A stretch of DNA of 64,000 bases from an uncultured Candidatus Saccharibacteria bacterium (GTDB lineage: Bacteria; Patescibacteriota; Dojkabacteria; GCA-002793355), in the NCBI GenBank assembly GCA_964525295.1, contig CAZGEO010000002.1, positions 129,230 through 193,229 on the forward strand, in the 5' to 3' direction. The stretch's first letter is position 1. Every line of letters begins with the position of its first letter. A program made the translations under genes and the position numbers. The notes under the pieces are model-generated. The model was given only the letters and a program-made list of their open reading frames with translations. It was not told the origin of the DNA and did no database searches. Below are positions 41 to 58,446 of the stretch, one piece after another.

Positions 41-322
41 ATGCAGATTAAACCAGTATCAAAGTTCATCGTTCTCAAGCCAGTTGTTCCAGAGGCGAAA
101 ACAAAATCAGGCCTTTTTATTCCAGAAACAGCAAAAGAAGATAAGGTCCCTATGATGGCAGAAGTTGTTGCGGTCGGCACCTCAAAGAAAATTGCAGAGC
201 AGGGGATTAAGGTCGGTGATTGGGTCGTGTATTCAAAATACGCAGGAACAGAAGTCGAACTTGATAACGAAAAGTATATGATCATTTCGATCAAAGACGT
301 TTTGGCGAAAATTGAAAAATAG
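41..322 (+). CDS. groES: co-chaperonin GroES (10 kDa chaperonin)
   Basis: 93 aa; mobile-loop and beta-barrel pattern typical of GroES (IKPVSK..VLKP...KTKSGLFIP...VVAVG); no groEL follows. Confidence 0.85.
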   Translation: MQIKPVSKFIVLKPVVPEAKTKSGLFIPETAKEDKVPMMAEVVAVGTSKKIAEQGIKVGDWVVYSKYAGTEVELDNEKYMIISIKDVLAKIEK

Positions 323-487: not shown

Positions 488-706
488 ATGGTCGTTATGA
501 GAGATATCTATACAACTCGTACTCGTTCGCAAATCATTTTCGATAGCTTTTGGGGTGGTATGGCTTGGGGAATTGGTTCAATATTGGGAGCAGTTTTACT
601 CTTTGCGATTGTAGGTTTTATCATAACTCGTGTGCAAGCTATTCCCATAATTGGTAACTTTGTGTACAATGTTCTTATTGAAGTAGAAAAACTTCGAGGA
701 AATTAA
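488..706 (+). CDS. small single-pass membrane protein, unknown function
   Basis: 72 aa ORF with one hydrophobic helix (GIGSILGAVLLFAIVGFIIT); coding status uncertain. Confidence 0.35.
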   Translation: MVVMRDIYTTRTRSQIIFDSFWGGMAWGIGSILGAVLLFAIVGFIITRVQAIPIIGNFVYNVLIEVEKLRGN

Positions 707-733
707 AGAAAATTAATTATTAACTGCTCAACA

Positions 734-988
734 ATGATAGCTCTTGAAATTGTCATTCAAATTCTTACTATAGTAGTTTTACTAATGTTGGCTGGAGTGC
801 TTTGGTATCTTTTTACCATGATGCAGAAAGTTAATAAGCGCCTTGATTCTCTACTCGAAATTCTTGATTATTACGAAAAGATTAAGGCTGTCGCCTTAGA
901 ATTCATGAACGGCCCAGGCAAGATGTATATTGAAATCTTCCAGTCAGTCTTGTCATTTGTCGTGCCATTTTTCACTAAGAAAAAATAA
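734..988 (+). CDS. small single-pass membrane protein, unknown function
   Basis: 84 aa ORF, N-terminal TM helix, Lys-rich C-terminus. Confidence 0.35.
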   Translation: MIALEIVIQILTIVVLLMLAGVLWYLFTMMQKVNKRLDSLLEILDYYEKIKAVALEFMNGPGKMYIEIFQSVLSFVVPFFTKKK

Positions 989-1053
989 TTGAGAAAAAAT
1001 AACAGCCTGAGTATTTTCATTGTTGTGCGGAATCTGCCTTTTCGTTTGACAAA

Positions 1054-2634
1054 TTGGCGCTAAACCAAGTAGAATCTGTTATGAACAAATTCTTGAAGAA
1101 ATTCCTAGAAATCGGGGCAGTATTGTTGATTGCCGGGGTGATATTTGCACCTCCTATTGCAGCAGTTGAAGATGTAAACCTCTATCTTAAAGTATACGAA
1201 GACGATGCCCAAGTTTCTAAAGTCATGACTGAATCTGATTCTGAAGATAAGCAGAAATCGAAGAATCGTGATTTGGTTGCAATGCTTGTATCCTGGTATA
1301 AAACAATGTTCGGTCTTGATGGCGCACCAAAGGCAGTTGTTGCTGAAGCTATTCAGAATGGCGAATTGCGTCCAGAGTTACAATATGGCGTTGTTCGTTA
1401 TGCAACAGATACGTATGTGAGTGCATTTTTTTATAGTCCATCGGTAAGTATTCCAAATTACTATGCAGATATGTTGTTGCCTGATGTGTTGAATCCTGCA
1501 TCATCAACTGCTTACGCTGCTGCAACCGATCAACCAGATAATCGTTCAGCAACAGAGTATCTAAAAAGTATGGGAATCAATAAACTTTGGGGTATTACCT
1601 TCGGTTTAGCCATGCTCATTTTGGTACTAGTTCTTATGGTTGCCGGTTTTATGATTATGTTCAGATCAAAGGCTGGTGGTCAAACAGTAGTTACCGTCAC
1701 TATGGCGTTGCAAAATGTTATTATTGGCGCGTTGTTAGCACTCGCAAGTTATGCGATTGGTGGTGTCTTTTTAAATATTTCGAAATACTTGATTCTTCTG
1801 ATTGGTACATTATTTGCCGGTTTCATGTCAGATCAAGGGCTAAATGTTATCTATCTGTCAGGGCCATGGAATTTAACTAAGGATTTTTTCATCACAACAA
1901 TTTGGGGTTCAAAAGATATTCTCGGTACAGCAACCGGTGCAGTTCAATCATGGGGTGATAGCATTGCGCAAGGTTGGGCAGGCTTTACTCAAGGTTGGCA
2001 AGATGCAAAGCAAACGGTTATTAGTCTTGAAGCATATCTTAATGGTTTATCTTCAGGTTTGTCAGGTACAGCGGAATTATTGAGAAATACGATTGCATAC
2101 CCATTTGTATTTATGGGGGCAAGAGTTATTCTTGGTGGAGTTATTCTTGTTGCTGCAATTAGAATTTTCTGGACAGTACTTTCAACATATATCAAAATGG
2201 TTGTTGATATTGTAATTGCACCGTTGGTTTTCATGATTTCAGCTCTTCCTGGTAAGCAGTCAGGTTATACAAACTGGCTGAATAGAATGTTTAAGAATGC
2301 CATTACAGTTCCAATCATGTTCGCTTTTGTTAACATTGCAGCATATCTCTCATTGAGTGTTGCTTCAGCACAAGGTGGTTGCAGTAACAATCTTATTACT
2401 TGTATATCGGCTGGAGCGATTCCTGTGGGGCAGAGTACTGGTACTGATTGGTTGTTTAGCGCAATGGGGCCAGGAGGAGTTATTGCTGCGGTTATGTTAA
2501 ACATGGTTCCAACTATGCCGGCATTTGTAGAAGATCTATTCTCTGGAAAATCAAGTGGTGGTCCATCGAAAGCCTGGGAAGGCGTCAAGAAGAACCTTCA
2601 AGTTTTGCCAGTATTTGGTGGGTTAATTCAATAA
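1054..2634 (+). CDS. polytopic membrane protein; signal peptide plus ~170 aa extracytoplasmic domain plus >=6 TM helices; VirB6/TrbL-like topology (function unproven)
   Basis: 526 aa; N-terminal hydrophobic signal (AVLLIAGVIFAPPIAA), then multiple long hydrophobic segments through the C-terminal two-thirds; internal antisense ORFs in the track look spurious. Confidence 0.5.
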   Translation: MALNQVESVMNKFLKKFLEIGAVLLIAGVIFAPPIAAVEDVNLYLKVYEDDAQVSKVMTESDSEDKQKSKNRDLVAMLVSWYKTMFGLDGAPKAVVAEAIQNGELRPELQYGVVRYATDTYVSAFFYSPSVSIPNYYADMLLPDVLNPASSTAYAAATDQPDNRSATEYLKSMGINKLWGITFGLAMLILVLVLMVAGFMIMFRSKAGGQTVVTVTMALQNVIIGALLALASYAIGGVFLNISKYLILLIGTLFAGFMSDQGLNVIYLSGPWNLTKDFFITTIWGSKDILGTATGAVQSWGDSIAQGWAGFTQGWQDAKQTVISLEAYLNGLSSGLSGTAELLRNTIAYPFVFMGARVILGGVILVAAIRIFWTVLSTYIKMVVDIVIAPLVFMISALPGKQSGYTNWLNRMFKNAITVPIMFAFVNIAAYLSLSVASAQGGCSNNLITCISAGAIPVGQSTGTDWLFSAMGPGGVIAAVMLNMVPTMPAFVEDLFSGKSSGGPSKAWEGVKKNLQVLPVFGGLIQ

Positions 2635-2646
2635 CGATAATAACTG

Positions 2647-5598
2647 ATGCCTGCGCCAAAAGGTCAAGAGTCAATGAGTGCATTGGGGTCATTATATGAC
2701 CTATTGTTCGCGGTCGCAGAAGATACATCAAAAAAGAAAGGGCCTGCAGCAGTTCCTGATCTCGTGACTTCGCAGATTAGCGATGGCGTTGCAGAAGGTT
2801 TAGTTGGTTTAGGCTCTGCACTCGCGGGAATTTCGGGCGAAAAAGGTGTAGAAAGTTTGGTTGGTTATGAATTAAAGGATTTATTCAACTCGTCAGCCGG
2901 AACTGTACAAGGTGAGTACAAAAATTTGTTTGGTACTGGAGATGGAAATCCCTATGTTTTTGCTACTCCAACAGCTGATGATCCTGACAAGAAAGCTTAC
3001 AATAAACAGGGTTTTTATGTTTTTAAAGATGAGGAAGGTGCGGAATTAGGGCGTCTTGACGCTTCTGGTGGTGTAACTGCAGAAGTTAATGCGGGAATGG
3101 TAAACAGTATATTGTTGAATCCAGCAGGTCTTGCGAATAGCATTGTTACTGATTGGTGGACAAAACGTCAGCAAGCCCAAATGATTGAAACGATTTCAGC
3201 AATTGTATCAGGTCAAACAGATCCTTCGCGCTTTTTGATGGATTCTGTCAATTTGGCTGATGATGTCGCACTTGATAATACTAATGCGCAAATTGCTGGA
3301 AACTACGTAAAGAATAGAAAGCTAGGTATAGATAAAGATGTTGCAGCAGCGATCGCCCAGGTAGAAGCTGCAGATTCAGCACGTGTAGCTGCCTTAGCTC
3401 GTGATAATCGTGGATACACAAAAGATGACTTGAGCCGATATACACAAGCTATAGATACTGCAGTTGCAATGTTTGCTGGAATCGACAAAGAAGAAGAGCG
3501 TTCAGAATTTGTTAATCTGTACAATTCTAGAGTCAAACAAGAATTGTTGAATAGATATAATCAAATGTCTGCCAATTTACCCCAATTTCAGGCAGTCAAC
3601 TCATTTGATGAGCTCTTTCTAGCAGCCAATAGAGGGCAATTACTTTCTATGCTTGATAACAATACATTATTTAATCGAGCATATGGTGGTCGTAGTCTTG
3701 GTGATGAAATGCAAAATGCATTTATGGATGTTTTTGGGCACTTAGGTACAGACAATACGTTATCTCCTCAGATGCGCGCGCATTTTGCTGGATTGTGGAA
3801 CAAAGTTGGGAATGACGAAACTTTTGGAAATTTGCTACGTTCAATGTCAACAGCTGTTAATCCAGAAGTTAAGAATGCGAGACCATTGATGCGTATGGGA
3901 ATTTCGGAGTTATCTGAGAAGATTAAGAATAACGCTGAAGGGGTGAAAAGTTTCTTACAATCACGAGTATTACAGAGTAACGAAAAACGATTAGAACGCG
4001 GTGATCAATGGAAAGATTTTAACGATTGGCGAGCGAAAACTGCCAATACCCTAAGTTACGCATACTTACGTTGGCAAACGGTTCCCTCAATTAATAAAAT
4101 ATTTACGCCAATCGGCCTATTAACGGGGCAAAGTTGGTATGATCTTTCAAACTGGGCTGGCGGTCCTGTTGGGTATGGTTTTGCTAAAACTTCTCCAGCT
4201 GAGTCTTTGAATATTGAATCTCCTAAAGTTTTTGGTGCTTATGGTTGGAATAAATTGCTTTTAATGCCAAGTAAAGCGAATGGGTTCCAAAAATTTGCGT
4301 ACACGATGGGAACATTTAGTCCATTGGGTGCTGCACAAGGATTCTTTAATGGCGATTTATTCCAAAGAATGGTTTGGATTGGTTCAGGATTTGGAAAGAA
4401 TATTGGTGACCAAACTAAGTGGGGTTGGATGGCAAGAGTTGGCCACGGTTTTTTAAACAATAGCGTATATCAAGGAATGGTTGGTGGCGTAAATTTTGGT
4501 CGTTATGTGTTTAACTTGCCTTCAATGATGATCAATCAATCGATGATGTTTATTCAGAAGGAGATTATTGATAAACTGCGCCAAAAAATGGCAGATGCGG
4601 CGGCGGCAGCATTTAGAAAATTAGTTGGCCAGAAAATTGCCGATTGGATAATTGCAGCAATTGGTGTAGTTACTGGTGGAATCATTAATGCGATTCAAAT
4701 TACTTATAAAGCATTGAATTATTTAACACTTGGTTTACTGGATAAAGTTACCGAATTTACATTGAAGCTTGCAATGCAAATTGTGATTGGTGTCATTTTG
4801 GGGATTTTTGTCGTAATTCCAGCGATTGCTGGAGGTGTAAATAGCGGTGATTCCAACGAAGTCGCTGCAACCCTCGGTTCTGGTGGCTTGCGTGCTCCTG
4901 ATCCTGATTGGGAACCGATTCTAGTAGATGCTGCGAATTTGGAGCTTGAACCACCTCCTGATCCTGGAGATGTTCCAACTGATGATCCGATAGATATGCC
5001 CGGTGCTAAAGGTATCGATGTGAGCCATTGGAACGGTGATATTAATTGGCAAACAGTTAAGAAATCAGGGCTTGTAGAGTTCGCAATTATTAAGGCCTCT
5101 GAAGGAACGGGGTTTGTTGATCATAGATTTGTAAAGAATTGTCAAAGTGCCAAATCTGTAGGTATTAAACGTTCGGCTTATCACTTCTTTCATGGTGATA
5201 TGAACGGAAAAGATCAAGCGAATCATTTCCTCAATACAATTAAGAAATGTGGCTCCGCTATGGATTTTGAAGTTACCATTGATGTTGAATTACCTTATAA
5301 AAGACCACCTCCAGATGTTAGTGTTTCAACGAAGAATTTGAAATTAATGCTTGATACGTTAGAGGCAGCACTTGGGTATAAGCCGATGATCTATACCAGT
5401 GATGTAATGTGGAAAGCAATGACAGTTCAACCAGGATGGGGGGGAAATGAGTATCCATTATGGGTTGCTGCGTATAATAATGTAGGTCCAGGTAAATTGC
5501 CAAAAGGTTGGACAGAATGGGTAATTTGGCAGTATAGCAAGAAAGGTAAGATCCCAGGAATTCCTTCTTCAGTTGACTTAAACATTTGGAACGATTAG
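2647..5598 (+). CDS. large membrane-anchored protein with C-terminal GH25 muramidase (lysozyme) domain
   Basis: 983 aa; C-terminus contains GIDVSHWNGDINWQTVKKSGLVEFAIIKASEG...SAYHFF...DVE, the hallmark GH25 (Lyz2/Cpl-1 type) signature; two TM helices around aa 660-740; Pro/Asp-rich linker before the hydrolase. Confidence 0.75.
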   Translation: MPAPKGQESMSALGSLYDLLFAVAEDTSKKKGPAAVPDLVTSQISDGVAEGLVGLGSALAGISGEKGVESLVGYELKDLFNSSAGTVQGEYKNLFGTGDGNPYVFATPTADDPDKKAYNKQGFYVFKDEEGAELGRLDASGGVTAEVNAGMVNSILLNPAGLANSIVTDWWTKRQQAQMIETISAIVSGQTDPSRFLMDSVNLADDVALDNTNAQIAGNYVKNRKLGIDKDVAAAIAQVEAADSARVAALARDNRGYTKDDLSRYTQAIDTAVAMFAGIDKEEERSEFVNLYNSRVKQELLNRYNQMSANLPQFQAVNSFDELFLAANRGQLLSMLDNNTLFNRAYGGRSLGDEMQNAFMDVFGHLGTDNTLSPQMRAHFAGLWNKVGNDETFGNLLRSMSTAVNPEVKNARPLMRMGISELSEKIKNNAEGVKSFLQSRVLQSNEKRLERGDQWKDFNDWRAKTANTLSYAYLRWQTVPSINKIFTPIGLLTGQSWYDLSNWAGGPVGYGFAKTSPAESLNIESPKVFGAYGWNKLLLMPSKANGFQKFAYTMGTFSPLGAAQGFFNGDLFQRMVWIGSGFGKNIGDQTKWGWMARVGHGFLNNSVYQGMVGGVNFGRYVFNLPSMMINQSMMFIQKEIIDKLRQKMADAAAAAFRKLVGQKIADWIIAAIGVVTGGIINAIQITYKALNYLTLGLLDKVTEFTLKLAMQIVIGVILGIFVVIPAIAGGVNSGDSNEVAATLGSGGLRAPDPDWEPILVDAANLELEPPPDPGDVPTDDPIDMPGAKGIDVSHWNGDINWQTVKKSGLVEFAIIKASEGTGFVDHRFVKNCQSAKSVGIKRSAYHFFHGDMNGKDQANHFLNTIKKCGSAMDFEVTIDVELPYKRPPPDVSVSTKNLKLMLDTLEAALGYKPMIYTSDVMWKAMTVQPGWGGNEYPLWVAAYNNVGPGKLPKGWTEWVIWQYSKKGKIPGIPSSVDLNIWND

Positions 5599-5652
5599 GC
5601 ATTTATAATAGGAATGTTAGCCCCCCTTGCCCAATCATAATTCCTCAGTATA

Positions 5653-6816
5653 ATGTACATAATGAAAGCGTTTTCTTTGATGCAAAAATATGTAGTTAGA
5701 ACACTTATTGTGGCACTAACTGTAGCCCTTGTGCCTTTGTCATTTTCCTCTGAGGTTTATGCTGCGCCAAAATCAGCAAACCTTCCCATGACGTGTGATA
5801 GAAGTAAGGGAGTTTATAAAGAAATGTCAACACTCGTTGTCATTCCTCTTGATTCAATGTTTACACGAATGCCAGGTCAGAGTCCAGAAGATGCTGCAAA
5901 AGCTATCTTTTATGATCTTGTTTATGCCCGAGGGAATAAGGCTTCGCCGTTCAATGCGGTGTCAATAGATGGTGACATCTATCATTTATCTTGTGAATTT
6001 ATTGACTATACAGCGAATATTGAAACTGGTTTGAAGCAGGGTACTTTCATTTTGGGTGTTAGCGGGCAGGTTAAAACTGCAGAAATTCAGTCATTAATTG
6101 ATACGTACAAATTCACCTCCTTCTTGCAGGCTTCTATGGCAAAAAATACTGCCGAAAATGCGACAGCTACATTAGCTCTAGCGAATGTTAAAGAATGCGT
6201 AGCACCTTGTAAAGGTTTAAATGTCGCCAAAGACGGGCCCACCTCAAGATCCTATAAACTCGCAGTAAGCGATGTTGAATTTTCAAAGAGCGTTCGCCAA
6301 AGAGAACAAGCAGCATTGTCATTAAAAGTGAAAAATGAAAGTGAATTTCCAATCTATAATGTTGGTACTAATAGAGTAAAGTTACAAACTACTAGTTCAG
6401 GAACATCAGATTTGTATTATTCTACCTGGTTAGCTCCGAATATCGTAGCAATGAATACCGAAGTACTTTTGCCAGGGGCTGAGATGACATTTTCAACAAC
6501 TTTAGGTGCGCCTTTATTGCCTGGTAAATACTTCGAGAATTTTCAAGTTCAAGTAGGTAATTTCAAGCTTGAGAAACCGATCACTGTCGAATTTACGGTT
6601 GAAAAAGACAATCTAAAGTTAGGTCAAATAAAATCAAAAGATGGTGCAGCATTCGCAAACCTTCGTGAAGGGCCAAGTTTGACGGCAAATATTCTAGGTA
6701 GGCTTGATGTCGGCGTTTATGTCGTTATCAAAGAATATCAAGATGCTTGGGTCAAGGTCGAAACCAAAGAAGGTAAAACAGGGTGGGTATACAAGCCATC
6801 GATAAAAGAATTGTAA
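5653..6816 (+). CDS. secreted protein with C-terminal bacterial SH3 (SH3b) domain
   Basis: 387 aa; signal peptide (cleavage near VYA|AP); C-terminal ~65 aa resembles SH3b (GQIKSKDGAAFANLREGPS...GVYVVIKEYQDAWVKVE...GKTGWVY). Confidence 0.5.
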   Translation: MYIMKAFSLMQKYVVRTLIVALTVALVPLSFSSEVYAAPKSANLPMTCDRSKGVYKEMSTLVVIPLDSMFTRMPGQSPEDAAKAIFYDLVYARGNKASPFNAVSIDGDIYHLSCEFIDYTANIETGLKQGTFILGVSGQVKTAEIQSLIDTYKFTSFLQASMAKNTAENATATLALANVKECVAPCKGLNVAKDGPTSRSYKLAVSDVEFSKSVRQREQAALSLKVKNESEFPIYNVGTNRVKLQTTSSGTSDLYYSTWLAPNIVAMNTEVLLPGAEMTFSTTLGAPLLPGKYFENFQVQVGNFKLEKPITVEFTVEKDNLKLGQIKSKDGAAFANLREGPSLTANILGRLDVGVYVVIKEYQDAWVKVETKEGKTGWVYKPSIKEL

Positions 6817-6832
6817 GTTAGAAATAATTGCT

Positions 6833-8839
6833 ATGTCAGTACTTCTTGATTTGAATACGTTAAATGCTGCCCAAAAAGAGGCTGTTATTGAATGCGATGG
6901 CCCTTTACTCATCTTAGCTGGTGCAGGGTCAGGTAAAACACGCGTTATTACGTACAAAATTGTGCATTTAATTACCATGCTCAATTATGCTGCAGATGAA
7001 ATTTTGGCGGTTACCTTTACGAAAAAGGCAGCTGGTGAAATGCAGGAGCGTATCATGCAACTATTACCACCGCAATATCACGATAAGAAACCTTTTATTG
7101 GAACTTTCCACTCGTTTGGCGCTTTTTTGTTGCGTCGTCATGCAGACAAAATCGGGCTTGATAGAGCATTTTCGATTTATGACCAAGATGATCAGCTTTC
7201 GGTGATTAAGGCGATATGTAAAGATTTTGAAATTAGCGCCAATTTCAAACCGAATATGATCCATGAAAAAATTTCAGATGCGAAAAATAAAGGGATTACG
7301 GCAGACGATTATTTTGCTAATAGCTACGGTGATGACTTTGATGAAGCAGTGTCAAAAGTCTATAGAGAATATATGAAACGTTTGAAAGCTCAAAATGCCG
7401 TTGACTTTGATGATCTCTTGTCGCTAGTAGTGAAGCTTTTTGAGCAAAACGCTGATATTTTAGAGAAGTATCAAGATCGCTTCAAATATATACTGGTTGA
7501 TGAATACCAGGATACAAATATGGAGCAGTATCGAATAATTAGGTTGCTCGCCAAAAAACATCATAGACTGTGTGTTGTAGGTGATGAAGATCAGTCAATA
7601 TATTCTTGGCGTGGCGCAACAGTTGATAATATCCGTTTTTTTCAGAAAGATTTTCCAGATCATAAGATTGTAAAATTAGAGCAGAATTATCGTTCAACCA
7701 AGATAATTCTCGATGCTGCGAATCACGTAATCTCGAAAAATCCGAATCGAATTCCCAAAGCTTTGTGGACTGACAAAGACAAACAATACCCGATTGTCGT
7801 GTCGAGGCTTGAAGATCCATTTTCAGAGGCAATATACGTATTGCGCGAGTTACAAAATCATTTGAGGAATCTTGACGACGTGGCAGTTTTGTATCGCGTT
7901 AACTCGATGTCGCGAACATTTGAAGAAATGTTTGTGAAGTATGGGGTTCCATACAAATTGGTGGGTGGTGTCGGTTTTTATCAGCGTATGGAAGTAAAAG
8001 ATGTTTTGGCGTATTTAAAGTTTCTTAATAATCCAAAAGACGAAGTCAGTTTACTGCGAATCATAAATACGCCAACTCGAAAAATTGGTGATGGAGCAAT
8101 TAAAAATTTTCGTGAATTAGCTCGCAATGTGCATCTTGGGCTCGCTGAATTTGTTTGGTATGCGTCTCTCGTTGCACACGATGAAGACTTTGCTATGGTT
8201 ATGGTTAGTGAAGAATATCTTTCGAAAATTCAAGAATGTGCTGGCGATACATTGAAAAAATATCCTCAGTTATTCGAACAATTAGGGCGAGTCATAAAGA
8301 AGTCGTTTGATCCTGTTGTAGACATTTCGACATTTGTCATGGCATTGGTTGATGATGTTGGGTATAAAGCATGGATTGAAAAGATGGCAAGTTCGAAAGA
8401 AGAAATGATTTCTCGCTACGCAAATGTTCAAGAACTCGCTGCAGTTGCGCAGCGAAATAAATATGTGGGGCGCGAAGGTTTAACAAAATTTCTAGAAGAC
8501 GTAGCGCTTGTTGAAGAAGCAAAAGAAGTAACCGAAGAAACGAATTCAAATATTAAAGGAAAAGTGCACCTAATGTCGATTCATGCTGCAAAAGGCCTCG
8601 AGTTTGGAACTGTTTTTCTTGTTGGGCTAGAGGAAGGAATCTTCCCTCATAATCGTTCGTTAGATAATCCTGTACAAATGCAAGAAGAAAGACGACTGTT
8701 TTATGTCGCAATTACAAGAGCAAAAGAGCATCTTTTCTTGACAAGTGCACGTCGTAGGCAAATGGGAAATATGTCATTTGAGACTGTTCCGTCTCAATAT
8801 CTCGCAGATATTCCCGATAAACTCAAAGTCGAAGTGTAA
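6833..8839 (+). CDS. pcrA: ATP-dependent DNA helicase, UvrD/PcrA family
   Basis: 668 aa; Walker A AGAGSGKT, motif II VDEYQDTN, QNYRS, VGDEDQSIY; superfamily 1A helicase motifs in order. Confidence 0.9.
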   Translation: MSVLLDLNTLNAAQKEAVIECDGPLLILAGAGSGKTRVITYKIVHLITMLNYAADEILAVTFTKKAAGEMQERIMQLLPPQYHDKKPFIGTFHSFGAFLLRRHADKIGLDRAFSIYDQDDQLSVIKAICKDFEISANFKPNMIHEKISDAKNKGITADDYFANSYGDDFDEAVSKVYREYMKRLKAQNAVDFDDLLSLVVKLFEQNADILEKYQDRFKYILVDEYQDTNMEQYRIIRLLAKKHHRLCVVGDEDQSIYSWRGATVDNIRFFQKDFPDHKIVKLEQNYRSTKIILDAANHVISKNPNRIPKALWTDKDKQYPIVVSRLEDPFSEAIYVLRELQNHLRNLDDVAVLYRVNSMSRTFEEMFVKYGVPYKLVGGVGFYQRMEVKDVLAYLKFLNNPKDEVSLLRIINTPTRKIGDGAIKNFRELARNVHLGLAEFVWYASLVAHDEDFAMVMVSEEYLSKIQECAGDTLKKYPQLFEQLGRVIKKSFDPVVDISTFVMALVDDVGYKAWIEKMASSKEEMISRYANVQELAAVAQRNKYVGREGLTKFLEDVALVEEAKEVTEETNSNIKGKVHLMSIHAAKGLEFGTVFLVGLEEGIFPHNRSLDNPVQMQEERRLFYVAITRAKEHLFLTSARRRQMGNMSFETVPSQYLADIPDKLKVEV

Positions 8840-9829
8840 ATGGATGTGCTGAAAAAAGGTTTGCAAATTGTTAGAAGAAAACCGGTAAGGATTTTGCAGC
8901 TTTTAGGATTCATTCCTTTTAGTATCTTTTCATTGGTTCTTTTCCTTTTTCTTTTTTCAGCTCAATATAGTGTTTTAAGAAGGCAACTCTTTGTTCAGCA
9001 TATTATCGATACTTATATTGCTCAAGATAAATTCCAAGTGGGTTTTTCGCCCGATCAATATACTATTCTTACCTATGATTTAACGAAAAAGCCGAAAATT
9101 GATACGTGTATGGTATTGCAACCTGTCCAAATTCAATTACCGGGGCGTGCAATTCCAGTTTTTACCTGTGCAGACTCAGATGCTTCAGTTTTAGGAGAAA
9201 TTTTTCCAGGACAGTCACACGAAATTTCGGGTGAAACTCCGGTGGTCTTTGCGGGTAAAATTATTGCGGCTACACCGGTAGAGAAAACTGCACGAATGGA
9301 ATTTGAACAGGTCGCTTATGCAACGGAAACGTGGTATTCGAATGATATTGAAGATGGAAAAAAAATTGTTAAACAGGCTGGCCAGCCAGGTGTTAGAGCA
9401 AAAGTGATTGAAGAAATCGTTTATCCTGATAACCAAAAGAAGACGCAGGTGATTTCTAGCTGGATGGAAAAAGAGCCTGTAATTGAGAAGGTTGAGATAG
9501 GTACTAAACGAATTATGAAAACTGCAACGATTGACGGGGTAACATTTCAGTATTGGAAAACCCTAGATGTTGTTGCTACATCCTATGATAAAAACTGCAA
9601 GGGGTGTAATGAGTGGACTGCTACCGGGGCATATTTGAAGAAAGGAATAGTCGCGGTTGATCCGAAGGTTATTAAAATGCATACGAAAATGTACATCCCT
9701 GGCTATGGTTTTGGACAGGCAGAAGATACCGGTGGCGCAATCAAAGGAAACAAGATAGATCTAGCGTTTGATGATGTTAGATACGGAAACTGGAGCAAGA
9801 GGACGGTTACTATTTATTTAATTAACTAG
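8840..9829 (+). CDS. membrane-anchored 3D-domain protein (MltA-like / YabE-YuiC-like cell-wall-binding domain)
   Basis: 329 aa; N-terminal TM; C-terminus ATSYDKNCKGC...GYGFGQAEDTGGAIKGNKIDLAFDD matches 3D domain with its three conserved Asp. Confidence 0.6.
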   Translation: MDVLKKGLQIVRRKPVRILQLLGFIPFSIFSLVLFLFLFSAQYSVLRRQLFVQHIIDTYIAQDKFQVGFSPDQYTILTYDLTKKPKIDTCMVLQPVQIQLPGRAIPVFTCADSDASVLGEIFPGQSHEISGETPVVFAGKIIAATPVEKTARMEFEQVAYATETWYSNDIEDGKKIVKQAGQPGVRAKVIEEIVYPDNQKKTQVISSWMEKEPVIEKVEIGTKRIMKTATIDGVTFQYWKTLDVVATSYDKNCKGCNEWTATGAYLKKGIVAVDPKVIKMHTKMYIPGYGFGQAEDTGGAIKGNKIDLAFDDVRYGNWSKRTVTIYLIN

Positions 9830-27897: not shown

Positions 27898-29178
27898 ATG
27901 CTCCGAAACCTGGTACGTTTCTTCACGTTTTTCCTCATGTTGATGGTTTTGTTGGCACGTTTTGGTATTCCTGAAATTTTAGCTTCAGAGATTTCAAATA
28001 TTTATCTGGTAGAACAGGCAAATAAAGAGCGTTTGGCACAAGGGCTAACTCCACTCAAATATAACAAGAAACTTGAGAGAGCTGCTTTTTTGAAGGCAGA
28101 AAATATGCTTAAAGAGCAGTATTGGTCGCATTATGGCCCACATAAAGAAAGTCCATGGCAATTTATTTTGCAAACTGGTTACAGCTATCAGGTTGCAGGT
28201 GAAAATCTTGCAAAAGGTTTCAGTGAAGCACAATCTGTTCATGACGCTTGGATGGCGAGTCCAACGCATCGCGCAAATATCATGGACTCACGATATCAAG
28301 ACATTGGCATAGCAGTTGTAAAAGGCGATCTTCTGGGGAACAACGTATATTTAGTTGTTCAAATGTTCGGAAATGTCAATGCTTCTGTAACAGGTTCACC
28401 AGCTGATTATCCACGATTGCAGATAACTAGTCCAGAAGATGGCGATATTCTTGAAGATGGAATCATCGATATTCGAGGTGAAGCAGATAAAATTGAATCA
28501 TCTGGAGTATCCGTTTATATAGACAAAACAATGCTTGGCACTACGCAGCCTGTTGAGAAGAAGTTTTCCTTAGAAGCAAATTTATCGGGCTCACAGGGTG
28601 AACAAACTATTACTGCAAAAGCCGTAGGAATTGGAGATACGTATTTGGCAGATAATGTTGTAGTTACCGTTATTAAGAATGCCTCAACCGATGTAGCAAC
28701 CAAGAATTGTATAACCGGTAAAATTAATGCGGTTGATTTTGAACTTCGTTATTCATGTTCAACAAAACCTCAGAGTTTTACGGCAACAATTGAAGCTGTT
28801 AAATATACAGCTGATAGCGCGCAGAATCTTATTAAAATTCCGGTTTCAGCACTTCCCGAGAATGATGCGCAGATTATTGTGTCATTGCAATTTCCAAATC
28901 AAGCGAATACGGCAACGTCTTTTCTGCTTTCAGATTTTGGTGTTGTTGCATCGCAGCAACAAACGGTAGCAGGAAGTGGGCAGAATATCTTTTCGTCGCT
29001 TACATTGAAGCAGGGTATAACCGTCATTTTTGTTATAGCTGCAATTTTGCTTCTTTTGTATATTGCTCAACTTATCTATAAAAAACAGCTATTTGAGCAT
29101 CGCGCAGAAGTTCTCATTATTGCAATATTTCTGGTAATTCTATTTATTGTATTTAATGTTGGAATTGTCAGATTATGA
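27898..29178 (+). CDS. CAP/SCP/PR-1 domain (YkwD-like) protein with signal peptide and C-terminal TM anchor
   Basis: 426 aa; CAP domain motifs (HY..GENLA...AW..SP.HRANI); Ig-like middle; hydrophobic C-terminal helix. Confidence 0.6.
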   Translation: MLRNLVRFFTFFLMLMVLLARFGIPEILASEISNIYLVEQANKERLAQGLTPLKYNKKLERAAFLKAENMLKEQYWSHYGPHKESPWQFILQTGYSYQVAGENLAKGFSEAQSVHDAWMASPTHRANIMDSRYQDIGIAVVKGDLLGNNVYLVVQMFGNVNASVTGSPADYPRLQITSPEDGDILEDGIIDIRGEADKIESSGVSVYIDKTMLGTTQPVEKKFSLEANLSGSQGEQTITAKAVGIGDTYLADNVVVTVIKNASTDVATKNCITGKINAVDFELRYSCSTKPQSFTATIEAVKYTADSAQNLIKIPVSALPENDAQIIVSLQFPNQANTATSFLLSDFGVVASQQQTVAGSGQNIFSSLTLKQGITVIFVIAAILLLLYIAQLIYKKQLFEHRAEVLIIAIFLVILFIVFNVGIVRL

Positions 29179-37480: not shown

Positions 37481-37718
37481 GAAATAGGGTGCATGAGCAG
37501 GAGCTTTGGTCCTTTGGGCTAAAGAGGAAAGTCCCGCCTCACATAAGTCACTAGCGAAAGCTAGGTAGGAGAAATCTTACGGATAGGGTCACAGAAATAT
37601 ACCCAGAAATGGGGTGAAATGCCGAACTGGCTATAGATAACCCCTGGCAGTGAGCAAGTCTAAGACGCTAAGATAAATTCCTGCGTAACAGAAGCGGGCT
37701 TACGGTGCGCCCTATTTC
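37481..37718 (+). ncRNA. rnpB: RNase P RNA, reduced bacterial type (~238 nt)
   Basis: P4 5' strand GAGGAAAGTCCCGCCTC; GGGGTGAAATGCC; 3' element TAACAGAAGCGGGCTTACGGT; 12-bp P1 pairing between GAAATAGGGTGC (37481-) and GCGCCCTATTTC (-37718). Confidence 0.75.
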
Positions 37719-44021: not shown

Positions 44022-45470
44022 TTATTTCAGATACACTTTGATTTGGTTAGAGTAATTGTCACAGCCACCGCCGGTGTAGCGACATACTCGCACATAGTAG
44101 TAACCTTCACCCTTGAAAGCTGATAATTCCCCAAATGAACGAACAGAACTTGATGATAAGTATTGGTTTTTATCACCTCCATCATCTCGGCCAGGGTAGG
44201 TTGGCCCACTATTTTTTGACCAAACTACTTTGAAACCGTTTGGTGTATCAAGGTTGCTAACTGTCCATGCAACTGAGGTTGCGCCGGTACTCTTGATGCA
44301 GAGTTTGAAACCTGTACACGCATTGGTTGGTGGCTTAGTTGGTGCTGGGGTAACTGGGGGTGGTGGGGATTCGCGTGTTACTGTGAGCTCAACTTTTGCC
44401 ATGTTGCCTGCTTTGTCTAATGCTTTGACGACGAAGTTGTTGGTACCAAGCTTTAGGTCAAATTCTTTTGAGAATTGCCCTTCATTGTTTTCAACTTTTA
44501 CGCCGTTAATCCAGACATAGGCTTCTTTTTCTGTTTTTCCAGAGATTTTTGCCGTCCAGTTTGTTGTTTTGCTGTTGTTTTGTGGTTCAGTAACAGTAAG
44601 TTCTGGAGCAGTTGTGTCTGCAAAAATGCCTAAATCTTCTTTGTATTCTTTTGAAGATTCATCAACTGTTTTATTCCAATCAACAAAGGTATCATTTTTC
44701 AGATCTTCTTCTTTTACAATCGGCTGAACGATTTTTTCTGTTGTTGGCGCTTTGGTATCAACTAAATAATATTTCTTACCTTCATCTACAACAATTTCCT
44801 TACCTTGATCAATAACATTTACTTTGTTGGCAAAAACTTCGACACCCTTTTTTGAGGAATTCTCGGTGACTCGGTAGGCTGTTCCCATCGCTTTATAACT
44901 AACGCCATTTGCTGAAACAATAAATTCACGAGTTTCAGATTTTGAAACGCGAGCATAGATTTCTCCTCGAGTATTTGTTACTACGATATTTCGTGGATCA
45001 AGTGAAGTCAGAATAATTTCTGAATCGCTATTCAATCGAATTGCGCTCCCGTCGTCTAGGTTTACAATAGCTTTACTATTTTGAGCGACACGAATGACAT
45101 CTCCTTGCTGTAATTTTGTATCAAGATTTGCGGTAGTCCATTTACCATCACGTTGATATTCAACCGTGCCTTCGGCAAATGCTATTTCTAGTCCGAGATT
45201 TTTATTAATTATTTTTTCTGAAATAAATAATGAGCCAACCACAAAAATGGTTGCTGCTACAATAACTGCCCCGCCAAGAAGCATGAACCTCTTGAGGAAG
45301 GTTTGAGTTGGTGACATATTTTTTGTCGTTATATTAATGTAACGATCAAGCACCTTTTGTCTGAGCTCTTCCTTGAACGCAGAATCTCGCCCTGAACGGG
45401 TTTTCCTGATTACTGCTTTTTTGAAGAATCCGTGCGCAGCGGTTTCTTCCGGAAGTGGTGAGTTGACCAT
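44022..45470 (-). CDS. FecR-like anti-sigma factor with single TM and C-terminal Ig/fibronectin-like extracytoplasmic domains
   Basis: 482 aa; cytoplasmic N-terminus, one TM helix (LLGGAVIVAATIFVVGSLFI), FecR-like beta-rich region, Pro-rich linker, Cys-containing C-terminal domain; directly downstream of ECF sigma. Confidence 0.5.
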   Translation of the reverse strand: MVNSPLPEETAAHGFFKKAVIRKTRSGRDSAFKEELRQKVLDRYINITTKNMSPTQTFLKRFMLLGGAVIVAATIFVVGSLFISEKIINKNLGLEIAFAEGTVEYQRDGKWTTANLDTKLQQGDVIRVAQNSKAIVNLDDGSAIRLNSDSEIILTSLDPRNIVVTNTRGEIYARVSKSETREFIVSANGVSYKAMGTAYRVTENSSKKGVEVFANKVNVIDQGKEIVVDEGKKYYLVDTKAPTTEKIVQPIVKEEDLKNDTFVDWNKTVDESSKEYKEDLGIFADTTAPELTVTEPQNNSKTTNWTAKISGKTEKEAYVWINGVKVENNEGQFSKEFDLKLGTNNFVVKALDKAGNMAKVELTVTRESPPPPVTPAPTKPPTNACTGFKLCIKSTGATSVAWTVSNLDTPNGFKVVWSKNSGPTYPGRDDGGDKNQYLSSSSVRSFGELSAFKGEGYYYVRVCRYTGGGCDNYSNQIKVYLK

Positions 45471-45471
45471 C

Positions 45472-46071
45472 TTACTTAATAAAACGATTATCTAAGCTAA
45501 ATATGTCAGTACTTGGATAGCGTTCAAGAAATTTCTTACGAAAATCTTGTAATGCGCGGTATAGAAGTACAGAAACTTGAGTCGGTTTAATTTGCATAAT
45601 TGAAGCAATTTCGGGATTGTCCATTTCTTCAAAAAATTTTAAGGAAAGAATATGTTGGTATCTTTCATGAAGTAGTGTAAGAACTGTAAAAACTTTGATT
45701 CTGTGCTCTTGACTTATTGCAGGATCTTCAACATCTACAGCGATTTCTGGTAATTCTTCGGCATCTTCTACACTTAAAAAGAGATGCACTTTTTGCTTTT
45801 TGAGGTAATCAATGATTGCATTGTGCGCAGTTCGGTAAAGCCAACTGCCAAAGCGAATACCTTTGCGTGTATCAAAATTTTTAATTGCTTCAACCGCTTT
45901 GAGAAAAACTATGCTAGTGACATCTTCGGCCGACTCGCGATTTGGCAAACGATTTCTGCAATACGAAAAGATTGATTGAAAATATAAATCGTACAATTTT
46001 TCGAATGCAACTATATCTTTTTTTGCTTGTTCAATAAGATGTAATTCTTCTTGAACTGAGAGTTCAATCAT
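45472..46071 (-). CDS. ECF-type RNA polymerase sigma factor
   Basis: 199 aa; sigma-70 region 2 (FEKLYDLYFQSIFSYC...WLYRTAHNAIID) and region 4 HTH (NPEIASIMQIKPTQVSVLLYRAL). Confidence 0.8.
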   Translation of the reverse strand: MIELSVQEELHLIEQAKKDIVAFEKLYDLYFQSIFSYCRNRLPNRESAEDVTSIVFLKAVEAIKNFDTRKGIRFGSWLYRTAHNAIIDYLKKQKVHLFLSVEDAEELPEIAVDVEDPAISQEHRIKVFTVLTLLHERYQHILSLKFFEEMDNPEIASIMQIKPTQVSVLLYRALQDFRKKFLERYPSTDIFSLDNRFIK

Positions 46072-46129
46072 TTAGTGAATTATAACTGATTCTTCGTTCA
46101 ATACCAAAAAGGCGAGAAAAAGATTCATT

Positions 46130-47617
46130 CTACCATTGGTAATAATAATTCAATTCGTTCTCAATTAATGGAGGTTCACCAATCGCAAACAGAATTTCAT
46201 TCGCATAGGTGATAACTTCGGCTGTTCTCGCAAATGTCATCATAATGAAGTGATTCTGATATTTTTTATAAAATCCTTGCCCGTAAGCGCGATCAAGTTC
46301 AGTCTCAAGCTTTTTCGCATCTTTCGTGTTGTAAATGGAAATCCAAGTTGTTTCAGGAATTTTTTTCATCATCTGTCTGACAATAAATGTAGGATAGGCA
46401 TAAGAAGAGTAGTCACCACGTTCAATGACCGCAAGGTGAACAGTTTTTAACGTAAGGTGTTGAGTCATCGCTTCTTCAAAGAAAGATGGAAGAGCATTAC
46501 CCGATTGACTTGACTGATAGTGCAGTTGCTCGTGAGTAATTACCTCGGCCATGACTTTTGGCTTGCTTGCAAGTTCAGGAAGAAAGTTAATACTGATTGT
46601 ACTTGGTGGGCTAAATCTGCCCCATTGAATGTTTACAATGGTTTTTTGCTGTAAGGCTTCTTTTAGTAAAGTACGGCCTTTTGTGATGGCATTGCGAGTT
46701 TGGGAGATGCTGGTTTCAAGGCTAGTTTGTGCGTTTCTAGTATAGCTACCACTTCCTCTTGCGATTTCACTTTTTACAAGAGAAAGTTCATTTTCAAGAA
46801 TGCCAAGGTTATTTTCTAACTTTGAAATATAAGAACGCACGTCTGCAATGTATGCATTCAGTTCATCTTGTGCTCCTTTTTCGAAGTCTGCGGGTGCCAA
46901 TACAATAAATACTGGTTTAATATTTTTTTGCGGTAATTTAAGGCAAGACATTAAGGAAGTGCCCACTTCAGGGAGAATAGTTTGTCCCATTGCAAGTGTT
47001 AATGATTGCAAATAGATAGAATTATTATATGCAAAAATCGGGTAATTTCGCTCAGAAATGGTTAACTTTTTCGTTGAATCATCTAATGCTTTCGCAAATA
47101 TAATTTCTGTATAAAAGTTCTCTGTGTTAAGTCGTGTGCGCTCCTTTTCTATGACTAACGCTCGCTCAAGTTCGCGCACATTAAACTTATACAGCTGACA
47201 GCTTCGTTGCGTTTGCGCAAGGATTTTAATGGTCGCGATATCAGTAACAATCGTGTTCGGCAGATCTTTTTCAATAGTTGCCACATTTTCGCGCACATTA
47301 AGACCTGCATAATAAGCTACAGCAGCGAAGGCAAAAGAGATTCCCACAAATAAAAGAAAGAACGAAAATAAAAGATTCTTTAAGATTTCTGCAAAAATTT
47401 TTGTTGCATTGAGAAAATCCCAATTACGTTTTGGAACAAATATAAGGAAAGTTGCGATAATTATTACATAGGTAATGATTGAGGTCGCTAACCATATCGG
47501 GAAAGTCGCAAGTGATAAATTTGTTGGAAGAAGGTAAAGAAAAGTGAAAAATGCGACTATTACATTTAATACAAGAATAGCAATAACTTGAAGAGGCGAT
47601 CGAGATTGTTCTTGCAT
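46130..47617 (-). CDS. membrane protein with extracytoplasmic domain containing HExxH motif (putative metallopeptidase-like)
   Basis: 495 aa; 3-4 N-terminal TM helices; HEQLH near C-terminus; first gene of apparent operon with ECF sigma and anti-sigma. Confidence 0.35.
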   Translation of the reverse strand: MQEQSRSPLQVIAILVLNVIVAFFTFLYLLPTNLSLATFPIWLATSIITYVIIIATFLIFVPKRNWDFLNATKIFAEILKNLLFSFFLLFVGISFAFAAVAYYAGLNVRENVATIEKDLPNTIVTDIATIKILAQTQRSCQLYKFNVRELERALVIEKERTRLNTENFYTEIIFAKALDDSTKKLTISERNYPIFAYNNSIYLQSLTLAMGQTILPEVGTSLMSCLKLPQKNIKPVFIVLAPADFEKGAQDELNAYIADVRSYISKLENNLGILENELSLVKSEIARGSGSYTRNAQTSLETSISQTRNAITKGRTLLKEALQQKTIVNIQWGRFSPPSTISINFLPELASKPKVMAEVITHEQLHYQSSQSGNALPSFFEEAMTQHLTLKTVHLAVIERGDYSSYAYPTFIVRQMMKKIPETTWISIYNTKDAKKLETELDRAYGQGFYKKYQNHFIMMTFARTAEVITYANEILFAIGEPPLIENELNYYYQW

Positions 47618-55696: not shown

Positions 55697-56371
55697 ATGA
55701 ATAATATGGATTTCAAAAGGAATTTTTTTAGCATAATTATTGGATTAGCACTTATACTTGTTGGTATTGGCGCATTACTTGATACTGCAAATGTTGTAGA
55801 TATTGGCTGGATATTTGGCACTTTTTGGCCATTATTGGTGATTAGTCTGGCTGTCTCACGATTTCTTGTCAAAGATATAAAAGGCGGTGTAATCATGGGG
55901 TTAATTGGTGTCGTTGCACAATTAAATGCATTAAAAATTACGTCAATTGATTTATGGCAGTTGGTTTGGCCGTTGATTTTAGTACTTATTGGTTTTTCAA
56001 TTATTAGCAAGTCGTTGAGATTTCAAAAAAAAGGAGATAGTTCAGCAACTTTCGCAGAAACAACAATTTTTAGTGGTTTAGAAAAGACAATACGAGATCA
56101 AGCTTTCAAATCAGGAAGCTTCATGACTTTTTTTGGAGGAACTGAACTTGACTTGACTCAAGCGAAGTTCGAAAACGGTGAAGCGGTTATTGATAGTCTT
56201 GTTGCATTCGGGGCAGCAGAATTAAAAGTGGCACCTGAAGTGAACGTAGTTATGGAAGTCACTGCACTTTTCGGTGGAAGTAGTGACACACGAAAAATTG
56301 AACAAACAAAAAACGATCAAACATTAATTGTTAGAGGCTATGTTCTTTTCGGGGCTATTGAGGTAAAATAG
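55697..56371 (+). CDS. LiaF-like / cell-wall-stress membrane protein (tentative)
   Basis: 224 aa; four N-terminal TM helices then a beta-rich C-terminal domain, architecture similar to LiaF/YvqF; immediately upstream of a receiver-domain gene. Confidence 0.35.
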   Translation: MNNMDFKRNFFSIIIGLALILVGIGALLDTANVVDIGWIFGTFWPLLVISLAVSRFLVKDIKGGVIMGLIGVVAQLNALKITSIDLWQLVWPLILVLIGFSIISKSLRFQKKGDSSATFAETTIFSGLEKTIRDQAFKSGSFMTFFGGTELDLTQAKFENGEAVIDSLVAFGAAELKVAPEVNVVMEVTALFGGSSDTRKIEQTKNDQTLIVRGYVLFGAIEVK

Positions 56372-56387
56372 TAAACATTTAGCTAGT

Positions 56388-58440: not shown

Positions 58441-58446
58441 TCAATC

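Follow-up and report, generated by a model that had tools for sequence, protein, structure and literature searches.

A Dojkabacteria gene block that joins a putative VirB6-like membrane protein to an anchored cell-wall hydrolase

Introduction

Patescibacteria, the Candidate Phyla Radiation (CPR), carry a type IV secretion system (T4SS) of monoderm (MPF-FATA) ancestry that is essential in Southlakia epibionticum and comprises VirB1-, VirB3-, VirB4- and VirB6-like parts together with arrays of VirB2-like pilins (PMC10633639, PMC12857230). Here, we analyze a 64,000-nucleotide stretch of contig CAZGEO010000002.1 (positions 129,230 to 193,229; hereafter the window), which homologues assign to Dojkabacteria (WS6, CPR/Patescibacteria), and a block of five genes within it that encodes two small membrane proteins, a polytopic membrane protein, a 983-amino-acid (aa) protein ending in a muramidase domain and a secreted SH3b-domain protein. 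We propose, giving equal weight to this being right and wrong, that the block is a Dojkabacteria-specific, chromosomal sub-module of the Patescibacteria T4SS with VirB6-like and VirB1-like components, located apart from virB4.

In surveys of Patescibacteria, VirB4 is reported from 2,417 of 3,035 genomes, whereas VirB6 is described as scarce in some CPR classes, which the survey authors blame on extreme divergence. The same literature describes VirB6 and VirB1 as often undetected or distant from virB4 in several classes, and VirB1 homologues as mostly located away from virB4, some of them with M23 domains. Dojkabacteria are listed among T4SS-bearing lineages in a preprint, and two Dojkabacteria genomes among the entries of Table S1 of PMC12102498 are marked VirB4-positive. 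In Southlakia, a peptidase and a lysozyme encoded downstream of virB4 are reported to be essential.

Conjugation systems of Gram-positive bacteria provide gene orders for comparison. The annotated order on plasmid pCF10 is prgF (75 aa), prgG (98 aa), prgH (VirB6-like), prgI, prgJ (VirB4), prgK (871-aa hydrolase) and prgL, and that on Tn916 is orf16 (VirB4), orf15 (membrane protein), orf14 (lysozyme/C40 peptidase) and orf13. ICEBs1 shows the same order as Tn916 in its conG-cwlT segment, part of an MPF-FA conjugation module. In PrgK, a degenerate LytM domain is paired with a domain that is in fact a muramidase, and the protein binds the product of the following gene, PrgL (PMC11323569).

Results

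Five tightly spaced genes for membrane and exported proteins

The block had been predicted from the letters of the window as five consecutive same-strand genes with defined topologies and domains. A check of the open reading frames (ORFs) recovered all five on the + strand with coordinates unchanged from those first given, and the GH25 and SH3b domains were confirmed. The features, together with the preceding groES gene, are as follows.

41..322, + strand: groES (Cpn10); Pfam Cpn10 at 6.8e-23, 74-81% identity to orthologues
488..706, + strand: small membrane protein 1, 72 aa, DUF5665; PF18910 at 6.5e-10, one hydrophobic segment at aa 20-60
734..988, + strand: small membrane protein 2, 84 aa; transmembrane (TM) helix at aa 1-33, no family
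1054..2634, + strand: polytopic protein, probably VirB6/TrbL-like by hydropathy, AlphaFold2 (AF2) model and family context
2647..4629, + strand: 983-aa protein, N-terminal orphan domain (aa 1-661), with relatives in Dojkabacteria orthologues only
4630..4851, + strand: 983-aa protein, membrane-anchor region (aa 662-735), hydropathy peaks 1.88 and 2.67
4852..5013, + strand: 983-aa protein, LG.GGL.APDP motif and Pro/Asp-rich linker (aa 736-789), from the orthologue alignment and C-terminal sequences
5014..5562, + strand: 983-aa protein, GH25 muramidase domain (aa 790-972), PF01183 at 1.1e-44
5653..6816, + strand: secreted SH3b protein, 387 aa; signal peptide, SH3b at aa 335-381 (nt 6655-6795), SH3_3 at 1.2e-11 and SH3_4 at 4e-10

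Intergenic gaps within the block measure 12-92 nt in the window and 2-59 nt in relatives. The order groES, DUF5665 gene, gene for an 82-87-aa protein, polytopic gene, gene for a 932-1,214-aa protein, SH3b gene and uvrD is common to nine independent Dojkabacteria lineages (the window with locus L009, then L001, L002-4, L005, L007, L008, L013, L014 and L017); the five-gene synteny, put forward as a check of the original prediction, holds in relatives. In most of the nine, a G5+3D gene, a NUDIX gene and fusA come next after uvrD.

All five block proteins change far faster than the flanking GroES and UvrD (26-55% versus 74-81% identity). Measured against the window, relatives retain 74-81% identity in groES and 77-80% in UvrD, compared with 39-52% in small protein 1 (eight loci), 44-55% in small protein 2, 39-51% in the polytopic protein, 26-37% in the N-terminal part of the 983-aa protein and 44-48% in the SH3b protein. 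Five exported or membrane products in succession are by themselves not improbable in a CPR genome, and tight spacing combined with fast change is more telling for this block than synteny. We therefore count the block as a real unit, on account of its tight spacing, its common orientation and a fast change shared by its members and set against slow flanking genes.

The polytopic protein belongs to a large T4SS-associated family

The ORF at 1054-2634 encodes 526 aa when read from TTG 1054. The true start is probably ATG 1081 (Met10), yielding 517 aa, since the called protein (P0001, 517 aa) and the N-termini of orthologues begin there. The highest-scoring promoter-like site of the first 11 kb lies across this start region, at 1046-1075 (TTGACA, 18 nt, TAGAAT; 11/12). 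It ends 5 nt before ATG 1081, so that an mRNA initiated there would be nearly leaderless, and it is not a conserved intergenic feature, the gap before the polytopic gene being only 2-8 nt in relatives.

Hydropathy and the AF2 model describe a signal-like helix, a helical outside domain of ~135 aa and 6-7 TM helices. The signal-like helix and the at least six TM helices of the original prediction were thereby borne out, while its outside domain of ~170 aa came out shorter. The protein shares the VirB6/TrbL topology of at least five TM helices, and its long membrane helices reach a pLDDT of at least 90. Its conserved core carries the motifs FMIMFRSK.GGQ, ALASYA.G, IRIFW..L.TYIKM..D...AP, PGKQ and W..RMF.

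Searches with the single protein yielded no match in Pfam, NCBIfam or PHROGs, and a word-indexed search returned 13 relatives only. A profile built from 11 orthologues was then compared with 1.84 billion cluster representatives and retrieved 2,825 of them at E<=1e-3 and 1,561 at E<=1e-10; the family is large and very divergent. Genomic context was readable for four members outside Dojkabacteria, and in all four the family gene lies within two genes of PF18895 T4SS pilin genes. One distant member, P0013, sits between five PF18895 pilins and genes for PrgI (VirB3-like), TraC-like and P-loop_TraG proteins (a split VirB4), whereas P0162, P0165 and P0168 each adjoin a PF18895 pilin gene. A Peptidase_C39_2 gene stands immediately upstream of the family member at two of these last three loci.

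In these two loci, from distant CPR lineages (L011, 8187-9458; L012, 7532-8803), the Peptidase_C39_2 protein is papain-like, and a ClpB-like multi-AAA protein of 1,248-1,589 aa is encoded alongside on the opposite strand, followed by more pilin genes. A C39_2 gene beside a VirB6-like gene may represent an alternative arrangement of hydrolase and VirB6-like protein.

Profile comparison of 60 diverse family members points in the same direction as the gene contexts. TrbL/VirB6 (PF04610) was matched by five members, more than any other Pfam family, with a best E value of 5.4e-4 and all matches below threshold; TrbC/VirB2 came second with three. The TrbL match of P0125 (17.1 bits, profile positions 97-185) maps to the conserved core of the family. 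Structure prediction from the 11-sequence alignment was unusable (pLDDT 56) and was superseded by a 100-sequence alignment, which gave a model with pLDDT 82.7 and pTM 0.66. When this model was compared with the PDB by Foldseek, chains of R388 TrwI/VirB6 occupied ranks 1, 2, 4 and 16 with probabilities of 0.77, 0.44, 0.57 and 0.47, below significance. In a library of viral models, the best matches were Bacillus phage G gp153 (E 3e-3) and A7KUX7, and a TrbL-named phage protein scored a probability of 0.82. The family profile returned a single chance match among PDB sequences (E 0.15).

A permease or an enzyme of glycan polymers (MFS, SEDS, MurJ/Wzx, Wzy) was considered as well and rejected, with no Pfam or NCBIfam match and no such fold among the top 50 PDB matches, which included no transporter fold of any kind. 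The original prediction had named a permease match together with missing synteny as evidence for an unrelated transporter; neither was observed. Collectively, these data indicate that the polytopic protein is probably a highly divergent VirB6-type protein, whose membership in the curated VirB6/TrbL family is not demonstrated.

A conserved carrier with exchangeable hydrolase heads

The gene for the 983-aa protein starts 12 nt after the polytopic gene, an adjacency of a channel-like protein and a wall hydrolase that was originally read as the hallmark of a wall-crossing machine and that agrees with the order in monoderm T4SS (orf15-orf14 of Tn916, prgH...prgK of pCF10). Its GH25 domain at residues 790-972 matches PF01183 at E 1.1e-44 and PHROG endolysin families down to 7e-46, and contains readable IDVS and DVE motifs. 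Active members of the GH25 family typically show such motifs. Over their first ~745 residues, orthologues align with 26-37% identity, and they share an invariant N-terminal motif, SMSALG.FYDA.Y. The anchor region, kept in all orthologues, consists of a weakly hydrophobic conserved helix followed by one strongly hydrophobic TM helix (aa 700-735).

The protein lacks a signal peptide; its hydrophobic region has basic residues on the N-terminal side and acidic ones on the C-terminal side. These features argue for an N-in/C-out orientation, in which the N-terminal domain of ~660 aa is probably cytoplasmic and the C-terminal enzyme probably lies outside the cell. The GH25 domain indeed comes after the strongly hydrophobic helix and a Pro-rich linker, its outside location being deduced from charge.

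The N-terminal domain matched nothing in the Pfam, NCBIfam and PHROG libraries, and its profile matched nothing among PDB sequences. A word-indexed search with the N-terminal 780 aa found the protein itself only, and a metagenome scan with the domain alignment led to Dojkabacteria again and to no other group. Two giant unannotated proteins (1,167 and 1,425 aa) encoded beside distant members of the polytopic family are not homologous to it by BLASTP and hhalign.

Unlike the carrier, the catalytic head differs between lineages. GH25 alone is present in the window, an M23/LytM-like domain in L001, L005, L008, L013 and L017, and an M23-like domain plus GH25 in L002, whose GH25 is 49% identical to that of the window. 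The L014 orthologue (2599-5493) has neither; it shows a HELTH (HExxH) motif and many cysteines without a Pfam match, and may carry a distinct, unclassified metallopeptidase on the same carrier. No SLT, CHAP or NlpC/P60 domain occurs in the window protein, which has GH25 only, or in its orthologues. The M23-like domains keep the HxH motif, and N, E or R stands where the first zinc-ligand His would be expected, four residues ahead of the Asp in YAID; by these residues, the domains may be degenerate.

M23/LytM-like domains that lack a zinc ligand are typical of regulators of division hydrolases (EnvC, NlpD), a point in favor of a housekeeping function in wall growth or division. The block would then encode a membrane complex that controls an autolysin for cell separation, much as FtsEX controls PcsB, CwlO or EnvC, and its T4SS link would be ancestral only. 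Its core position between groES and uvrD, held in nine lineages, and its vicinity to the G5+3D wall enzyme and translation-factor genes would fit such a role, and nothing suggests a mobile element. Division proteins are, however, not expected to change two to three times faster than their neighbors or to swap catalytic domains. Neither the Pfam nor the fold search revealed similarity to FtsX, SEDS, MurJ or other wall-synthesis proteins, and the N-terminal domain of the hydrolase is found in Dojkabacteria only. We consider a housekeeping role improbable.

Small membrane proteins and the SH3b protein

Both small proteins are well conserved inside Dojkabacteria. In small protein 1, a conserved amphipathic tail (IPIIGEFVYN..EV.KL.GK) comes after a single TM helix; small protein 2 opens with a TM helix, continues with a conserved soluble stretch (KLDS..E...YYEK.K....F..GPG..Y) and ends in a basic C-terminus. 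Small protein 2 has no family above threshold in Pfam or NCBIfam, and our literature search on DUF5665 (PF18910) returned nothing. By hidden Markov model (HMM) searches the two are unlike PrgF, PrgG and PrgI, by phmmer they are unlike five CPR pilins, and neither has a Pfam match to PF18895/PF04956 pilins, PrgI/VirB3 or TrsD.

The SH3b protein comprises a signal peptide, a domain of ~300 aa and the C-terminal SH3b domain. Four cysteines (C48, C114, C182 and C186) are invariant among orthologues, consistent with an extracellular site. When its profile was compared with solved structures, only the SH3b part matched, and outside that part no relative was detectable.

Phage, plasmid and chance origins

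Two small TM proteins followed by a GH25 enzyme and an SH3b protein resemble a holin-endolysin cassette, and the strong PHROG endolysin matches of the GH25 domain add to this resemblance. The block could accordingly be left over from a prophage lysis cassette or an integrated conjugative element, or else be a chance neighborhood of a transporter and a wall-turnover enzyme, for which it counts that the collinear region among relatives exceeds the block. The evidence has largely refuted these origins. GH25 makes up only the last 20% of the 983-aa protein, and the remaining 780 residues are without a phage or plasmid relative. The flanks of the block are free of phage, integrase and relaxase genes in every lineage, base composition is uniform along the window with block GC equal to that of the remainder, and the polytopic protein matches no permease family or fold; moreover, the spacing is tight and the five proteins are similar in rate. 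With the two large proteins as tblastn queries, neither 72,556 plasmids nor 50,697 phage records yielded a match, which argues against a mobile-element origin. We regard a chance or prophage-derived assembly as very improbable.

Two specific phage-related candidates were rejected. A phage lysis cassette is at odds with the C-terminal position of GH25 in so large a protein, with the missing phage genes at its flanks and with the lack of phage matches beyond GH25. A tape-measure protein with a lytic domain found no counterpart either: the N-terminal 743 aa and seven orthologues matched no tape-measure PHROG, the phage records gave no tblastn match and no tail genes lie nearby. The phage-like injection device initially entertained was dropped, PHROG and phage matches being confined to GH25, and the comparison of the N-terminal ~650 aa with tail and tape-measure families, suggested along with it, matched nothing.

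Weighing the T4SS assignment

The T4SS sub-module that we propose has to be set against several results that weigh against it. Pfam scans and motif scans revealed no VirB4/VirD4-like ATPase in the window, as originally noted, nor is there one in the 7 kb upstream of it (L009), and in none of the nine lineages is a VirB4, VirD4, VirB3 or pilin gene found less than 10 kb from the block. The suggestion that the system continues upstream of the window was accordingly abandoned. The genome may lack a virB4, or may have a second VirB6-like gene beside one. HMMs of all five block proteins compared with PrgD-M, PcfA and Tn916 Orf13-17, together with hhalign of key pairs, gave noise (PrgH, Orf15, PrgK, PrgF, PrgG, PrgI). 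For the polytopic protein in particular, hmmsearch and hhalign against PrgH and Tn916 Orf15 stayed at noise level (hhalign probability 1.8% for Orf15), the window protein has no TrbL profile match at E<=0.1 (gathering score 25.9 bits), and the fold matches to TrwI/VirB6 are not significant, with E values of 0.19-1.2 (0.19-0.54 for the leading matches) and target-normalized TM-scores of 0.28-0.36 (0.34-0.36 at the top). The initial VirB6/TrbL label thus stands for the wider family, which is T4SS-associated and weakly VirB6/TrbL-like, and falls for a direct match to Pfam TrbL, PrgH or Orf15. We further know of no precedent for a 660-aa cytoplasmic domain on a VirB1-type hydrolase. Finally, collinearity extends past the block, through EF-G, in genomes that are fairly close (UvrD 77-80% identical), and for these two reasons synteny alone is weak evidence of functional linkage.

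Gene contexts in the wider family differ from those in Dojkabacteria. A VirB4 cluster was found around P0013, and pilin genes only around P0162, P0165 and P0168, in contrast to the window, the 7 kb upstream and the 10-kb flanks of the eight other lineages, where there was no VirB4 cluster. The five CPR pilins, used as phmmer queries, had no match in either the window or the Dojkabacteria loci.

The lack of T4SS ATPase and pilin genes near the block in nine lineages favors a T4SS-independent envelope module that descends from, or resembles, VirB6. Here, the polytopic protein would scaffold or gate an anchored hydrolase that breaches the host wall at an epibiont-host interface, the SH3b protein would aid attachment, and exchangeable heads and fast change would be adaptations to differing host walls. 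A catalytic head swapped on a conserved carrier is a pattern of polymorphic effector proteins, and the identity of 26-55% versus 74-81% fits surface or host-interaction proteins; of all explanations, this one best accounts for domain swapping and fast evolution. The other family members, however, consistently lie beside T4SS genes. The hydrolase appears to be anchored in the membrane of its producer by a strongly hydrophobic helix, with a linker of only ~50 residues, which favors the producer's own wall as the target unless cells are tightly apposed. An independent, host-directed module is for us the main alternative, tentative and rather doubtful, and the T4SS sub-module remains the explanation that we develop below.

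Genes surrounding the block

GroES is the invariant upstream neighbor and lies outside the machine proper; it is possibly co-transcribed with the block, which starts 165 nt after its stop codon (~170 nt in the original prediction). The gene is an orphan as first described, never preceding groEL: a motif scan found no GroEL signature in the window or in any fetched locus. The DUF5665 gene always follows it at a distance of 39-165 nt (L001, L002, L005, L007-L009, L013, L014, L017 and the window), and in the window the spacer contains at ~341-378 a short tandem repeat of ~4-5 copies of AATAAAGC.

Gene content upstream of groES is not constant between lineages, with two-component genes in L001, ndk in L002 and a histidyl-type tRNA synthetase gene in L008. 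The 7 kb upstream of the window, read from the same contig in another assembly (L009), encode an alpha/beta hydrolase, DUF998, HARE-HTH and Abi_C proteins, a 765-aa protein of unknown type and a type ISP restriction enzyme. The last of these, a restriction-modification enzyme, forms with the 765-aa, Abi_C and HARE-HTH proteins a small defense-type islet (L009, 1-7202).

Downstream, the gene for a uvrD/pcrA-type helicase (6833-8839, +) abuts that for the G5+3D protein (8840-9829, +) with zero spacer, a pair that trails the block in most relatives. The G5+3D protein is an RpfB/YabE-like wall enzyme and thus a second wall-active product, 2 kb downstream of the GH25 fusion.

Further away, the window contains a type IV pilus cluster (55697-62242, +) with genes for a LiaF-like membrane protein, a response regulator, PilB (T2SSE, 4.9e-120; 56770-58440), PilC (T2SSF; 58447-59508) and a pilin with an N-methylation motif (59508-59939). 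The cluster ends with a 473-aa LVIVD-repeat protein and two unannotated ORFs, and a response regulator and a PAS histidine kinase are encoded on the opposite strand. PilB, in the 56.8-62.2 kb cluster, is the sole secretion-type ATPase in the window, as judged by motif scans and by a Pfam search with 28 of the proteins encoded there. Other exported proteins are encoded at 27898-29178 (+) and 44022-47617 (-), namely a CAP-domain plus Big_7 protein (426 aa), a FecR plus Glucodextran_B protein (482 aa) and a 495-aa ORF without a family. The window also harbors a strongly reduced RNase P RNA of bacterial class A (37485-37718, +), which has only 234 nt, yet spans the full 367-position model with 101.4 bits against a gathering score of 100.

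Discussion

How might the five products of the block work together? In the T4SS sub-module that we propose, they would be physically coupled to one another and to VirB4. The 517-aa polytopic protein would serve as a VirB6-like subunit of the membrane translocon or platform, and the 983-aa protein as its VirB1-type partner, with a cytoplasmic N-terminal domain, a one-helix anchor, a Pro-rich linker and a peptidoglycan hydrolase outside. This hydrolase would open a local gap in the wall, be it the cell's own or that of a host, through which the machine or a VirB2-type pilus could pass. The SH3b protein would bind peptidoglycan and position or restrain the hydrolase, the two small membrane proteins would act as assembly or stabilizing subunits, and VirB4 and pilins encoded elsewhere would provide energy and fiber.

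A bolder scheme dispenses with the ATPase altogether. The block might form a self-contained wall-breaching device made from T4SS parts, with a VirB6-derived platform and a giant carrier whose head is swapped to match the host wall. We think this unlikely; if true, the five fast-evolving proteins would be host-range determinants of this CPR class, and the orphan 660-aa domain would be a new cytoplasmic control or energizing module.

To the question of what the essential Patescibacteria T4SS does, the sub-module proposed here would contribute in three ways. New in this work are the separation from virB4, a giant carrier whose N-terminal domain is an orphan and whose heads are exchangeable, and a family profile that may recover the VirB6 missed in many CPR lineages. 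First, the locus suggests a reason for the scarcity of VirB6 in surveys: a VirB6-like protein can be too divergent for standard profiles and can lie far from virB4. Second, the family profile, with its 2,825 cluster representatives, could fill the VirB6 gap across CPR genomes. Third, the locus is a testable candidate for the way in which an ultrasmall epibiont opens its own wall or that of its host, with an anchored carrier, muramidase and peptidase heads that can replace one another, a partner that binds the wall, and fast evolution. Our finding overturns nothing and refines a recently described system; the idea of a new type of machine, raised at the outset, was too strong, as a Patescibacteria T4SS with VirB6- and VirB1-like parts has already been published (PMC12102498, PMC10633639).

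Comparison with known systems

At the level of single proteins, TrwI/VirB6 of R388 (PDB 7o3v, 8rt9, 8rtd) and Pfam TrbL resemble the polytopic protein as helical, polytopic membrane proteins with a conserved central region. TrwI/VirB6 provides the top-ranked solved structures for the AF2 model, in a match short of significance. Compared with TrwI/VirB6, the block protein carries at its N-terminus an additional helical domain on the outside, where it also has conserved cysteines; we know of no VirB5 partner for it. The 983-aa protein can be set beside the VirB1-type hydrolases of monoderm bacteria (PrgK, TraG of pIP501, CwlT, Tn916 Orf14), whose typical set is an SLT or lysozyme-like domain with CHAP or NlpC/P60 and sometimes LytM; the window protein and its orthologues use GH25, M23/LytM-like or HExxH domains.

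At the level of gene order, the orf15-orf14-orf13 segment of Tn916 shares with the block a succession in which a VirB6-like polytopic protein comes first, a bifunctional lysozyme/peptidase immediately after it and a further transfer protein last. The modules of Tn916 and ICEBs1 lie directly downstream of VirB4 genes (orf16, conE) on mobile elements with relaxases, in contrast to the block, which is core chromosomal and has no ATPase or mobility genes.

A further parallel in layout is the Prg/Pcf T4SS of pCF10 from Enterococcus faecalis. The block is collinear with prgF-prgG-prgH-[prgI-prgJ]-prgK-prgL minus the bracketed genes, that is, two small proteins, a polytopic protein, a multidomain hydrolase of ~870-980 aa and an exported or membrane partner of ~200-390 aa. 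As in PrgK, Dojkabacteria orthologues pair an M23/LytM-like domain, its first His ligand missing, with GH25, and an SH3b protein follows. This close functional parallel lies in architecture and gene order only, sequence homology not having been found in our comparisons. The block differs in that it lacks prgI (VirB3) and prgJ (VirB4), which in pCF10 separate the polytopic gene from that for the hydrolase, and in that its muramidase is GH25 rather than SLT-like, without CHAP, with hydrolase domains that are C-terminal to a large, probably cytoplasmic domain.

The Patescibacteria T4SS itself (Southlakia SEML1_0006-0019; Quinonero-Coronel et al. 2025, PMC12102498) shares with the block the phylum, a monoderm MPF-FATA-like character, VirB6- and VirB1-like parts, a chromosomal location and the lack of a relaxase. 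The two are further connected by distant members of the polytopic family, which sit in such clusters with PF18895 pilins, PrgI and VirB4. The Dojkabacteria block differs in standing by itself next to groES, with no VirB4, VirB3 or pilin gene closer than 10 kb, in fusing peptidase and lysozyme functions to one giant anchored protein with an orphan 660-aa domain, and in including a pair of small, conserved TM proteins along with an SH3b protein.

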